A stretch of 57,086 nt of DNA, taken from positions 1 through 57,086 of the forward strand of contig CAZAPM010000008.1 in assembly GCA_964487475.1 (NCBI GenBank), written 5' to 3'. Position numbers and translations under genes: made by a program. This stretch comes from an uncultured Planctomycetales bacterium (GTDB lineage Bacteria; Omnitrophota; Gorgyraeia; Gygaellales; Profunditerraquicolaceae). How positions within the stretch are numbered: the first letter of the stretch is position 1; the number at the start of each line of letters is the position of its first letter. Positions 19,485-23,520 of this stretch are shown here, in pieces. The notes under the pieces are model-generated. The model had not been told where the DNA came from, ran no database searches, and worked only from the letters and a program-made list of their open reading frames with translations.

Positions 19485-20531
19485 ATGCCTCAATATGATC
19501 TAAATCTTCGAGAGTATCTTCGTATTTTCCGCAAGAGAAGTTATGCCATAATCGCCGTATTCCTTCCCGTCACTCTCGGCAGCGCGTTATACCTTTCTTC
19601 GCAGCCCGCTCATTACAGGGCCGACGCCACCATCAAGATCGAAGAGCGCAAGACCATCGCCGGTATGCTCACGGAGTGGATCATGTTCAATCCCGGCGAT
19701 ATCATGGAAACCCATACCCAGACCATCAAAGCATACCCGGTGCTCAAGCGCACCGCGGAGGAAATCGGGCTGCTGGCTCCCCAGGCAGACACGGAGGCGG
19801 CGAACGCCGCGGTCAGCGCCCTGCAGGGACAGATCGAGACCGAACGGGTCAGCCGGACCAACATGATCCGCATCATCGCGACCGCCGATACACCCAAAAA
19901 AGCCATGGACATGGCCAACACCGTGGCCCGGGTGTATATCGACGAAAATATGCGGGAAAAATCCACGCAAGCCAGACAAGTGCGAAGTTTCATCGAAGAG
20001 CAGCTGGCTTCCCTGGAAACACAGCTTAAACGATCCGAAGAAAAGCTCAGCTCCTTTTCCGAACAGGTCCGGAACATCTCCCTGTCCGGACCTATCCAGT
20101 CGAGACTGGTCGACTTACAGTTCAGCCTCGCGGAATTGCTGCAGCAGTACACGGAGAAGCATCCGAAGGTCCTGCAGTTGCAGGAGCAGATCTCCCGGAT
20201 CGAATCGCAGCTTACCACCATGTCCAGCCAGGAGCTGGAATATACCCGCATTTCCCGGGAGATCGAAGTGAATAAAAAGCTCTTCTCCATGCTGAAGGAG
20301 AAGCTGGAAGAGGCGAAGATCAACGACGCGCAGAGAGTGGAGGATATCACCGTGGTCAATCCGGCGTTCCTGCCGCAGGTGCCGGTATCCAGTGCGATAC
20401 ACGGCGCAAAATTGCTCACGAGCGCCTTCGTGGGGCTGCTGCTCGGGCTTACCGTAGCCTTCATCCTGGAGGCCCTGGACACTTCCCTCAACATTATCAA
20501 AGAGGTGAAAAAAAACCGGGAGGGACGCTGA
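19485..20531 (+). CDS. Polysaccharide co-polymerase (Wzz/Wzc N-terminal part) without a tyrosine-kinase domain
   Basis: DLNLREYLRIFRKR, two TM helices flanking a coiled coil, YTEKHPKV, Pro-rich PAFLP before TM2. Ends at EALDTSL...EGR. Confidence 0.8.
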   Translation: MPQYDLNLREYLRIFRKRSYAIIAVFLPVTLGSALYLSSQPAHYRADATIKIEERKTIAGMLTEWIMFNPGDIMETHTQTIKAYPVLKRTAEEIGLLAPQADTEAANAAVSALQGQIETERVSRTNMIRIIATADTPKKAMDMANTVARVYIDENMREKSTQARQVRSFIEEQLASLETQLKRSEEKLSSFSEQVRNISLSGPIQSRLVDLQFSLAELLQQYTEKHPKVLQLQEQISRIESQLTTMSSQELEYTRISREIEVNKKLFSMLKEKLEEAKINDAQRVEDITVVNPAFLPQVPVSSAIHGAKLLTSAFVGLLLGLTVAFILEALDTSLNIIKEVKKNREGR

Positions 20532-22420
20532 TGGGGGGCATCTGCGGGATTTGGCATTTTGATAAGGCTGCGGCTGTCGATCGCGGCCGCATCGATGCCA
20601 TGATCGCCCATATGCACCACCGCGGACCGGACAGCAAAGGCACTTTCATCAGCGGCCAGGTAGGCTTGGGAGCAGCCAGGCTGAAAGTCCTCGATCCGGA
20701 ACACGGGGACCAGCCGATCTACAACGAGGACCGCAGCGTCGCGGTGGTCTTCAACGGAGAGATCTACAATTACCGCGGTGTGCGCGCGCTGCTGGAAGAC
20801 AAAGGACACCGTTTCTCCACCGCCACGGACACGGAAGTGATCGTGCACGCCTGGGAATCCTACGGCCGCATGAGCCTGGAACTGCTGCGGGGAATGTTCG
20901 CCTTCGCGCTCTATGACCACCGCACCCGGGAACTTTTCGTCGCCCGTGACCGTCTGGGGATCAAACCGCTTTATCTGTTCCGGGACCAGGCGATCCTGGC
21001 CTTCGCCTCCGAGATCAAGCCGCTCTTCGAGGCCGACTGCTCGCGTATCCCCAGGGCCATCGATCCGTATGCGCTCGATGAGTTCTTAAGCCTGCGCTAC
21101 TGTATCGAACCGCGCACCATATTCGACAAGATAGAAACGCTGCCTCCCGGATACTGCCTTTCGGTAAAGAACGGTTCCTGCGAGATGTCCCGCTACTGGG
21201 ACCTGCGTTTCCATGCGGCCTCGAAAAAAGCCTTACGTCCCGGGCAGACTGCGGAAAAATGCCTGGAACTGCTGGACGGGTCCACGGCGCTGCATTTGGC
21301 CAGCGACGTGCCGATAGGCGCTTATTTAAGCGGAGGGGTCGATTCCTCCGCGATCGTGCAGCTGATGCAGGCGCACTCGGGACAGCCGGTACACACCTTT
21401 TCCGTGGGATACCCCCAGGATGCGCGCAGCTACGACGAAACCCCCTTTGCCCGGTTTGCCGCGGAGGTGCTGCGAAGCAGCCATCAGAGCCTGGCGATGA
21501 ACGCGGAGGATTTCCGCGCACTGCTGCCGCTGTACGTGCGCCACCAGGAGCAGCCACTCGGAGACGCATCCCTGGTGCCGTTCCTGTTCCTCTCCCGCCA
21601 CGCCTCACGCTCCATGAAAGTCATGCTTTCCGGCATGGGAGGGGATGAGTTCTTCTTCGGATACCCGGAGATGCGCGATGCCGTGGTCAACCTGGCCTTA
21701 AGCCGCCTGACCAGAGGCACACTGACGCAACGAGGGATACTGGCGGCATTTTCCCGCGGCGCGTATCCTCCCGGGATACTCCGGGGGCTAGCGCGCATCG
21801 CATTCTTCCCTCCCCGTGCCTTTATGCTGCCCCGCTATTTCCAGCCCGCGCATAAGGACCTGCTTTACGGTGAAGCGCTGCGCGACGCCAAAGTACGCCA
21901 CCACACCGATCAGGCGATCAAAGCCGTGCTGCTGCAGGCGCCGGAGGGGGCAAACGCCTATCAGCAAACCCTCTATGTCTGGACGAAAACCATGCTGGCT
22001 TCCAATATACTGCAGGGAAGCGATAAAGCCAGCATGGCCGCCTCCATTGAAATGCGCGTACCGCTGCTCGACCATACCCTGGTGGAATTCCTGGCGAACA
22101 CGCCCCTGAACATACTCTACGCCTCAGGGAGATACAAGTACCTGCTCAAGCGCTCCATGCGCCACCGTCTGCCTGCCCACATACTGGAGAGGAAAAGAAC
22201 GGGGTTCCAGACTCCCGAGGTACCCTGGCTCTGCGGTGCGCTGCGCCCAACGATAGAAGAAACTCTGCGTCAAAGCCGGGGAGTACGCTACGGTTATTTC
22301 TCCGGCAAAGGGATCGAGACCCTGCTTCGTTCGTTCACCCGGGAAGATCCCGCGGCAGTAAGAAGGATATGGCTGCTCTACCTGTTCGAATTATGGCATA
22401 AGGAGTTCTTCGGCGCATGA
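20531..22420 (+). CDS. asnB: Asparagine synthase B-like amidotransferase/ligase with a non-canonical N-terminus (MGGICG)
   Basis: HRGPD, FNGEIYN, TDTEV, RDRLGIKPLY, LSGGVDSS, SGMGGDE, EMRVPLLD. Start overlaps the upstream TGA. Confidence 0.85.
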   Translation: MGGICGIWHFDKAAAVDRGRIDAMIAHMHHRGPDSKGTFISGQVGLGAARLKVLDPEHGDQPIYNEDRSVAVVFNGEIYNYRGVRALLEDKGHRFSTATDTEVIVHAWESYGRMSLELLRGMFAFALYDHRTRELFVARDRLGIKPLYLFRDQAILAFASEIKPLFEADCSRIPRAIDPYALDEFLSLRYCIEPRTIFDKIETLPPGYCLSVKNGSCEMSRYWDLRFHAASKKALRPGQTAEKCLELLDGSTALHLASDVPIGAYLSGGVDSSAIVQLMQAHSGQPVHTFSVGYPQDARSYDETPFARFAAEVLRSSHQSLAMNAEDFRALLPLYVRHQEQPLGDASLVPFLFLSRHASRSMKVMLSGMGGDEFFFGYPEMRDAVVNLALSRLTRGTLTQRGILAAFSRGAYPPGILRGLARIAFFPPRAFMLPRYFQPAHKDLLYGEALRDAKVRHHTDQAIKAVLLQAPEGANAYQQTLYVWTKTMLASNILQGSDKASMAASIEMRVPLLDHTLVEFLANTPLNILYASGRYKYLLKRSMRHRLPAHILERKRTGFQTPEVPWLCGALRPTIEETLRQSRGVRYGYFSGKGIETLLRSFTREDPAAVRRIWLLYLFELWHKEFFGA

Positions 22421-22470: not shown

Positions 22471-23520
22471 GTGGATCTGCATAGCTTCCAGTATAAGCGC
22501 ATACTCGTCATCAATTTGGGAGGCATCGGGGACGTCCTGCTCTCGACGCCTGCGCTGCGTACGCTGAAGAACACCTATCCCTTTGCGGAGATCAGCATGC
22601 TGGTGGTCCCCAGGGTAGTTCCCCTGGCAGAACGACTTCCGTACATCACCCGGGTATATTCCTTCCAGAAGACCGGATTCGACCTTTTCGATGCCGTACA
22701 GAACATCCCCAACCTGATGCTGCTGCGCAACGGCAAATTCCACCTCGCGATCAACATGCGCAGGATCAGTTCGCTGGAAAGTTCGCGCAAATTACAGATG
22801 ATATTGAATATCATCCGGCCCGCGCAAACCGCCGGCAGGAACACGGAAGCGCGGGGAGGATTCTTCACCATCAGCATACCCGAAGAGGACTTGACGAAAA
22901 CCTCCGAGATGGACCACGACCTTGCCCTGGTCGAACAGCTGGGGGTCAAAATAAGCGACCGGGCTATCGATTTCCCCCTGCGCAGCGAGGACAACACCGC
23001 GGTCGAGAGGATCATGAAACGCTATGACCGGGAGTTACACACCCCGATAATCGTAGTGCAACCGGGAGGCAAGCCGGGAAAGCGCTGGATGAAAGACCGT
23101 TTCTCCCAGCTGATCAACCGGCTGCGCACCTCAACCGACGCGTTCTACGTCATCACCGGGTCGAAGGAAGAACGCGGGTTAGCGGCGCACATCGCTTCCT
23201 CGGCCGGGACGGATGCGGCCAATCTGGCGGGTAAACTCACCATATTCCAGACCGGCGCGCTGCTGAAAAAAGCCAAACTTTTCATTACCAACGATAACGG
23301 TATGATGCATGTGGCCGCTGGATTGCAGGTGCCCATGGTGGCAATGCTTACCCCCGGCAGCATCAGCCGGTACGATCCCCGGATAGTGGACCCGAAAGCC
23401 CTGGTGCTCTGGAAGGAGCCTCCCTGCGCGCCGTGCATCCGCGACGACTGCACCGATCCGGCCTGTCTTCAGGATATCAGCGTGGAAGAAGCCCTGGAAG
23501 CCTGCCTCACATTCCTATGA
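22471..23520 (+). CDS. GT9 (heptosyltransferase-like) glycosyltransferase
   Basis: ILVINLGGIGDVLLSTPALRTLK, NLAGKLT, ITNDNGMMHVAAG, PPCAPC. GTG start with AAGGAG RBS. Confidence 0.9.
   Translation: MDLHSFQYKRILVINLGGIGDVLLSTPALRTLKNTYPFAEISMLVVPRVVPLAERLPYITRVYSFQKTGFDLFDAVQNIPNLMLLRNGKFHLAINMRRISSLESSRKLQMILNIIRPAQTAGRNTEARGGFFTISIPEEDLTKTSEMDHDLALVEQLGVKISDRAIDFPLRSEDNTAVERIMKRYDRELHTPIIVVQPGGKPGKRWMKDRFSQLINRLRTSTDAFYVITGSKEERGLAAHIASSAGTDAANLAGKLTIFQTGALLKKAKLFITNDNGMMHVAAGLQVPMVAMLTPGSISRYDPRIVDPKALVLWKEPPCAPCIRDDCTDPACLQDISVEEALEACLTFL

Follow-up and report, generated by a model that had tools for sequence, protein, structure and literature searches.

The 57,086-nucleotide stretch of DNA analysed here (the window; GenBank assembly GCA_964487475.1, contig CAZAPM010000008.1, positions 1 to 57,086 of the forward strand) comes from an uncultured Planctomycetales bacterium and encodes, within a surface-glycan locus, an AsnB-family amidotransferase, P0001, in which glycine occupies the place of the catalytic N-terminal cysteine. 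Sequence comparison indicates that this Cys2-to-Gly exchange (C2G) is a one-off, lineage-specific loss and not the sign of a new enzyme class: cysteine stands at position 2 in 262 of 262 homologues with an alignable N-terminus, and none has another residue there. As judged by alignment, P0001 is uniquely altered at one invariant catalytic residue in each of its active sites, namely C2G and a Lys-to-Arg exchange at residue 556 (K556R). We favour the reading, to which we give an even chance, that P0001 is a WbpS-like amidotransferase of glycans, glutaminase-dead in this one lineage, and would use free ammonia if it is still active. The analysis is based on one assembly, and the source genome is a 36-contig draft of 1.87 Mb.

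20531..22420, + strand: AsnB-family gene encoding P0001, 629 amino acids (class II/N-terminal nucleophile (Ntn) amidotransferase plus PP-loop synthetase); assigned from Pfam, TIGR01536, AlphaFold2 and Foldseek
20534..20536, + strand: codon 2, GGG (Gly), replacing the nucleophile Cys; from the sequence and from Cys in the 262 alignable homologues
20519..20523, + strand: Shine–Dalgarno-like GGAGG, with a 7-nucleotide spacer to the ATG at 20531; read from the sequence
20529..20531, + strand: TGA stop of the wzz-like gene, overlapping the asnB ATG (ATGA coupling); from the sequence and the list of open reading frames (ORFs)

Glycine at the nucleophile position

Position 2 was compared in two sets of homologues: a close set, made up of the best 119 matches from a word-indexed search of 5.8 billion protein clusters, and a representative set of 149 further proteins from a profile search of 1.84 billion representatives (50% identity), giving 152 aligned sequences with P0001–P0003. 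Cysteine was found in all 117 alignable members of the close set and in 145 of the 149 representatives. The four representatives without a scored Cys comprise three N-terminally truncated sequences and P0207, whose match begins only at profile position 17. An earlier note on this DNA, made from the sequence alone, had raised the question of whether orthologues share Gly2; every alignable relative compared here carries Cys. The source genome's two other AsnB paralogues likewise start MCGICGV and MCGIAGI.

The closest relatives, P0002 and P0003 (hereafter the sisters), are encoded on metagenomic contigs, share 48–49% identity with P0001 and begin MCGICGIL. No indel separates P0001 from either sister across the first 170 residues, so Gly2 sits exactly at the nucleophile position. 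The placing of Gly at the catalytic Cys site, proposed in the earlier note, is thus borne out in exact family register. The start region itself also reads as reported there: ATG GGG GGC ATC TGC GGG (MGGICG) at 20531–20548 was confirmed by re-reading, and translation of the ORF 20531–22420 gives an N-terminus of MGGICGI. No other start exposes a Cys, as the 85 upstream codons, open as far as a stop at 20273–20275, contain no ATG, GTG or TTG. Initiation at ATG 20531 is well supported by these sequence features, that is, the ATGA overlap, the GGAGG and the absence of an upstream start codon.

Codon 2 falls within a run of six G residues in a metagenome-assembled genome (context ATGGGGGGC), and in a draft of 36 contigs an assembly or consensus artefact that hides a true TGC or TGT codon has to be considered. 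We regard this as very unlikely, because a change from Cys to GGG takes two base changes and no indel in the G run restores Cys. Moreover, K556R, which lies 1.66 kb from codon 2, and the change of the near-invariant glutamine loop RRLSIIDL to ARLKVLDP show real divergence of P0001. The source genome's own assembly holds no variant contig or copy of the start region, and when metagenome contigs were scanned once, by exact pattern, for this region in a second assembly, 0 matches were returned.

A different explanation would make Cys5 the true nucleophile, exposed either when an MGGI propeptide is cleaved off or when translation starts at ATC 20540, which would give CGIW... as in human asparagine synthetase (ASNS). 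In phmmer alignments, Cys5-Gly-Ile-Trp of P0001 is indeed paired with Cys1-Gly-Ile-Trp of human ASNS, and the 25 residues from Cys5 to the HRGPD motif lie within the family range for Cys1, which we take to run from 24 (human) to 28 (Escherichia coli). Propeptides occur in other class II amidotransferases, such as Bacillus subtilis PurF and GltS, although we know of none in the AsnB family. Cys5 is, however, ancestral: relatives begin MCGICGI, with Cys5 in 100 of the 119 close matches and A, V, T or S in many others, so that it appears to lie buried in the strand instead of serving as a new nucleophile. In addition, no indel relative to the sisters permits a three-residue slide of strand 1, which spans residues 2–9 in the structural model, and ATC 20540, unlike ATG 20531, has no Shine–Dalgarno sequence at a usable distance. 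A role for Cys5 as nucleophile is therefore extremely unlikely.

Fold and glutamine pocket of P0001

The earlier identification of an AsnB homologue within a glycan locus is upheld by the domain searches and by its neighbours, which are glycan genes. Pfam detects GATase_7 (PF13537, 1.3e-42; GATase_7/GATase_6 at residues 33–166) and Asn_synthase (PF00733, 6.8e-85; residues 245–624), and P0001 passes TIGR01536 (asn_synth_AEB, ‘asparagine synthase (glutamine-hydrolyzing)’) with 432.7 bits against a cut-off of 267.1 over residues 3–559. The top-scoring NCBIfam model is TIGR03108 (eps_aminotran_1; XrtA/PEP-CTERM, WbpS/WbqG type), which matches over the full length (1–621) at 480.6 bits, below its curated cut-off of 816.9. 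An exact-sequence look-up of P0001 found no record. AlphaFold2, run from 120 homologues, predicted a two-domain AsnB fold (predicted local distance difference test score 93.1; predicted template modelling score 0.93). Foldseek ranked TsnB9 (7YLZ), E. coli AsnB (1CT9) and human ASNS first for this model, followed by β-lactam and carbapenam synthetases, with a probability of 1.00 for 7ylz, 1ct9 and 6gq3.

20678..20680, + strand: Arg50 codon, kept; equivalent of E. coli AsnB Arg49, which binds the glutamine carboxylate; Arg in 119 of 119 and 151 of 151 homologues
20753..20761, + strand: Asn75-Gly76-Glu77 codons, kept; oxyanion hole and glutamine pocket; from alignments and the residue list in PMC6748925
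20828..20830, + strand: Asp100 codon, kept; binds the glutamine α-amino group; from alignments and the residue list in PMC6748925

In human ASNS, Arg48, Val52, Asn74, Gly75, Glu76 and Asp96 bind glutamine and stabilize the Cys1 thioester, and the corresponding pocket and oxyanion residues of E. coli AsnB are R49, N74, G75, E76 and D98 (PMC6748925). P0001 keeps all five equivalents of the E. coli residues (R50, N75, G76, E77 and D100) and agrees with the 120-sequence alignment at each of its 35 invariant columns. On the basis of the model and the alignments, the glutaminase domain is folded and has a glutamine pocket without a thiol. Glutamine hydrolysis by class II amidotransferases depends on the Cys-1 thiolate (PMC6748925), and with Gly at the N-terminus it is excluded on this established mechanism. 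The claim of the earlier note that the enzyme cannot use glutamine is supported to that extent, the nucleophile Cys of the Ntn fold being replaced by Gly. P0001 therefore also carries a caution for annotation, since it passes a ‘glutamine-hydrolysing’ model while being, as far as its sequence tells, unable to hydrolyse glutamine.

A probable acceptor-related position in the synthetase domain

21329..21349, + strand: PP-loop SGGVDSS (residues 267–273), intact; S267, G268, G269, D271 and S272, invariant or nearly so in homologues, are present
21635..21637, + strand: Met369 codon at the position of E. coli AsnB Glu348 (SGMGGDE, residues 367–373); from a phmmer alignment to 1ct9
22196..22198, + strand: Arg556 codon (AGA) at the position of E. 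coli AsnB Lys449 and human Lys466; from alignment to 1ct9, 7ylz and 6gq3

SGGVDSS, the PP-loop motif of ATP pyrophosphatase chemistry noted earlier as remaining, was found at residues 267–273, and the synthetase residues D372-E373, D498, E507 and R509 are also kept. The change of SGEGADE to SGMGGDE, also noted earlier, is real but is not peculiar to P0001. At the Glu348-equivalent column, E or D is present in 117 of the 119 close matches, and both sisters, which keep Cys, have Val. Among the 152 aligned sequences, 29 (~19%), from at least two clades, have a non-acidic residue here (V, L, I, A, M, H, Q or G), all with the Cys nucleophile intact. SGMGGDE was considered as a sign of a dead synthetase site and rejected, as the position varies across Cys-bearing relatives. 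Glu348 is needed to adenylate aspartate, and its human equivalent, Glu364, makes contact with that substrate and is required for activity (PMC6748925). Met369 makes aspartate an unlikely acceptor without speaking against activity as such, and in combination with the glycan context it points to a different acceptor. The column is probably a variable, acceptor-related position of glycan-locus AsnB-like enzymes, whose non-acidic classes may have different acceptors.

The non-acidic residue at this position and the loss of Cys could also be taken to mean that P0001 has been neofunctionalized into an amide ligase, coupling a sugar carboxyl to an amine or amino acid instead of ammonia. There is a precedent in the AsnB-type enzyme MoeH5 of the moenomycin pathway, which attaches NH2, Gly, Ser, Cys, Ala or C5N to a uronic acid (PMC8778134). 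Such ligation was proposed in the earlier note as one of two ways around the missing cysteine, but it found no support here and we hold it to be improbable. P0001 and its Cys-keeping sisters have the synthetase-site oddities in common (Val or Met at 369, D484Y/W, K529L and a changed Y381), and the non-acidic Glu348 position recurs in Cys-bearing representatives as described above. Furthermore, the full glutamine pocket is kept, which would be needless for a user of external amines, the Cys loss is a singleton and not a clade, and P0001 scores far below the cut-offs of the lasso-cyclase (NF033535; 228.4 against 525) and macrolactam-cyclase (NF033561; 58.7 against 300) models. The other way around proposed there, the use of free ammonia, is a reasonable fallback.

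Candidate ammonia-dependent glycan amidation

P0001 is a genuine AsnB-family enzyme whose gene looks expressed. The features of its sequence, how unique they are, its fold and its gene neighbourhood were observed; from these we infer the use of ammonia, the acceptor and any remaining activity. After Met removal, P0001 would begin with Gly, with the result that no glutamyl thioester, and no ammonia from glutamine, would be formed. The glutaminase half persists as a folded domain with a glutamine-binding pocket, and in the synthetase half the PP-loop remains, as do the acidic and Arg residues that adenylation of a carboxyl requires. If active, the enzyme would adenylate the carboxyl of a sugar or glycan intermediate and then amidate it with free ammonia, like laboratory Cys1 mutants of AsnB, and would probably work with the adjacent GT9 transferase. 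K556R and mild drift near the glutamine loop suggest weakened, not re-invented, catalysis.

WbpS/WbqG and Porphyromonas gingivalis PGN_1234 are genetically proven AsnB homologues that make uronamides (PMC7468200). E. coli AsnB C1A still binds glutamine and AMP and has a continuous ammonia tunnel (PMC11615228), and ASNS accepts NH4Cl as a nitrogen source (PMC6748925). As the sisters have the same synthetase-site oddities and keep Cys, the acceptor site of P0001 appears to be that of a glutamine-fed ammonia transferase. Boehlein, Richards and Schuster reportedly found in 1994 that AsnB C1A and C1S keep ammonia-dependent synthesis. The source genome encodes two Amt ammonium transporters, which is weak evidence, such transporters being near-universal.

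A variant of the ammonia-dependent reading is that the intact, Cys-less pocket has been kept as a glutamine sensor, in which glutamine binding gates or inhibits amidation of the glycan with free ammonia at the synthetase site. Glutamine inhibits the ammonia-dependent reaction of E. coli AsnB C1A and C1S. We consider a sensor function a long shot; if true, it would tie surface-glycan amidation to the nitrogen status of the cell.

Several observations weigh against ammonia-dependent amidation by P0001. First, the residue equivalent to Lys449 is Lys in 119 of 119 and 151 of 151 homologues (270 of 270), and P0001 is unique in having Arg, a change absent from the earlier note. This Lys binds the acyl-AMP phosphate and has been described as essential in AS-B (PMC6748925), and with K556R even the ammonia-dependent activity of P0001 may be low or absent. 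Second, at N-terminal-domain columns with at least 90% conservation, P0001 departs at 9 of 72, compared with 1 and 3 in the sisters (Fisher p=0.011, the two sisters not being independent of each other and most changes in P0001 being conservative). Third, no closer orthologue of P0001 exceeding 37% identity was found in 40 related genomes, the best database match being at 48%. Finally, no uronic-acid gene was found within the glycan locus, and two UDP-sugar dehydrogenase homologues lie elsewhere, on contigs C9 and C31 of the source genome.

The excess at conserved glutaminase columns is modest evidence of relaxed constraint and fits relaxation as well as adaptation. In the C-terminal domain, conserved-column departures are level (7 of 66 in P0001; 6 of 66 and 7 of 66 in the sisters). 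Tajima relative-rate counts are equal (N-terminal domain, 24.1 versus 19.2; C-terminal domain, 32.8 versus 34.5), with no acceleration in either domain, and identity to the sisters is 52–54% in the N-terminal domain and 46% in the C-terminal domain. The higher N-terminal identity and the equal rates suggest that the gene, which has no stops or frameshifts, is still constrained. Simple decay of the gene, tried as an explanation, was not demonstrated, as the overall relative-rate test shows no acceleration. The earlier note had held that its interpretation would fail if close orthologues all kept Cys and this copy showed relaxed selection: all relatives compared do keep Cys, and relaxation shows only in the modest excess at glutaminase columns. 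Its novelty claim is weakened by both.

The main rival of the ammonia-dependent reading is that P0001 is catalytically dead, either as a young, undisrupted pseudogene or as a structural pseudoenzyme partnering GT9 or the Wzz/Wzy machinery. The pairing of C2G with K556R, one in each active site and both at residues kept in every relative compared, speaks for a dead enzyme, as do the glutaminase-column excess and the retention of Cys by all relatives. The lack of an orthologue in the 40 related genomes indicates that the gene is accessory, and single-chain AsnB–GT9 fusions among the relatives make a physical partnership plausible. However, the frame of 629 codons is undisrupted, its start is coupled and preceded by a Shine–Dalgarno sequence, and P0001 has lost none of the 35 invariant columns, nor the PP-loop, nor any part of the glutamine pocket. 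The rates show no acceleration relative to the sisters, and the change from Lys to Arg is conservative. The genome is also only 1.87 Mb, and small genomes seldom retain dead genes for long. Overall, we consider a dead enzyme possible but somewhat unlikely.

Comparison with known AsnB-type enzymes

Like WbpS, WbqG and PGN_1234, P0001 is a two-domain AsnB of ~630 amino acids in a Wzx/Wzy-type glycan locus beside glycosyltransferases. By analogy with WbpS/WbqG, it would be expected to turn a sugar carboxyl into a carboxamide in an ATP-dependent reaction. Unlike enzymes of the WbpS/WbqG type, P0001 falls below the TIGR03108 cut-off, has Gly at the nucleophile site, Arg at Lys449 and Met at Glu348, and lies in a locus without uronic-acid genes.

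P0001 resembles E. coli AsnB C1A (1CT9) in having a thiol-less glutaminase domain with the glutamine pocket kept, and its model matches 1ct9 with a Foldseek E-value of 1e-28 and template modelling (TM) scores of 0.64/0.81. It differs from C1A in being a natural variant, in having Gly instead of Ala or Ser and in carrying the equivalent of K449R.

AsnB homologues that lack the cysteine are well known as whole families: β-lactam synthetase (β-LS), carbapenam synthetase (CPS) and the lasso cyclases. With β-LS (1JGT), CPS (1Q15), lasso cyclases and MoeH5, P0001 shares the AsnB fold, a non-functional glutaminase half and a residue other than Glu at the Glu348 position. In β-LS and CPS this position is Tyr. 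The evolved Cys-less ligases and cyclases use a nucleophile other than glutamine-derived ammonia, and their glutamine pocket is also degenerate. In contrast to these families, which are whole clades with a dead glutaminase site, P0001 is a singleton with an intact pocket whose nearest relatives are Cys-bearing, and in the Foldseek ranking the β-LS and CPS structures come below AsnB and TsnB9.

The hydroxyamidotransferase TsnB9 (7YLZ) is the best match among solved structures, both by sequence (E-value 2.9e-45) and by fold (E-value 6.5e-34; TM scores 0.78/0.84). Like P0001 it is AsnB-like, and it acts on a non-aspartate carboxyl. Unlike P0001, it keeps Glu at Glu348 (LSGEAADE) and Lys at Lys449; the two share 22% identity over the structural alignment, and TsnB9 works in a secondary-metabolite pathway and is not part of a glycan locus.

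What appears new here, from the sequence comparison, is a single natural ‘Cys1 mutant’ in an otherwise intact enzyme, as against the known Cys-less families. If the codon is real, P0001 is the natural counterpart of the laboratory C1A and C1S mutants of AsnB, otherwise intact, in a streamlined uncultured bacterium, and it would show that amidotransferases of glycans can survive with free ammonia alone or with no catalysis at all. The finding opens no long-standing question and would not greatly surprise a specialist. Two by-products may be more useful than C2G itself, namely the non-acidic Glu348 position in about one-fifth of the nearest representatives and the repeated fusion of AsnB to glycosyltransferases, including GT9, as both bear on the acceptors of very common AsnB-like enzymes.

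Glycan locus and probable glycosyltransferase partners

19485..20531, + strand: Wzz/chain-length-determinant-like gene, translationally coupled to asnB; Pfam Wzz and GNVR, and TIGR03007 at 3e-38, below cut-off
22471..23520, + strand: GT9-family glycosyltransferase gene adjoining asnB; Pfam Glyco_transf_9 at 8.8e-23

On the basis of Pfam and gene context, the surface-glycan cluster spans 1–24500 of the window. It contains methyltransferases, two B12-radical-SAM genes, two Wzy_C genes, GT2 and GT4 genes, a DUF218 fusion, an epimerase/dehydratase, a WecA-like initiating transferase, Wzz, asnB, GT9 and a Wza-like exporter (Poly_export).

Three related metagenomic representatives of 979–1004 amino acids (P0137, P0245 and P0267) are single-chain AsnB–GT9 fusions, and the whole length of the window GT9 can be aligned with their C-terminal halves (E-values 6e-50 to 1e-36). 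To our knowledge, such a single-chain pairing has not been described before. Longer AsnB-like relatives are fused to GT4, GT2, GT9 plus methyltransferase, flippases and other glycan enzymes, and unfused ones adjoin glycosyltransferases. The fusions and the transferase neighbours together suggest that AsnB-like enzymes act on glycan intermediates jointly with transferases. Complex prediction for P0001 and the adjacent GT9 gave a score of 0.01 (mark 0.32), which amounts to no answer and was counted neither for nor against a partnership.

Near the C-terminus of the window GT9, C319, C322, C327 and C332 (GCxxPC...DC...C) are invariant with the GT9 halves of the three fusions; this four-cysteine group resembles a possible metal-binding cluster.

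The source genome's other paralogues, at C26:3297-5162 (−) and C11:15912-17684 (+) (loci L023 and L030), each lie directly beside a GT4 gene. The paralogue on contig C26 also adjoins a B12-binding radical SAM gene, like those that head the glycan locus of the window. No obvious housekeeping asparagine synthetase was seen in the source genome. The 518-amino-acid ORF at 754–2310 of the window shows no similarity to the 518-amino-acid ORF beside another relative, P0164.

Close to the 3' end of the wzz-like gene, a run of eight A residues (20508–20515) lies 15 nucleotides before the asnB start; a slip of +1 or −1 in this run would alter the C-terminus of Wzz.

Lastly, P0382, P0386, P0387 and P0389 are fusions of a Wzx-type flippase (Polysacc_synt) with an AsnB-like domain, ~1100–1220 amino acids long, that do not start with MC. 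P0382 has no MCG before an internal HRGPD motif, and P0386, P0387 and P0389 have no HRGPD; one of these clusters has 99 members. If the gene calls are right, these proteins could represent a clade in which the AsnB domain lacks a glutaminase and is tethered to the flippase.

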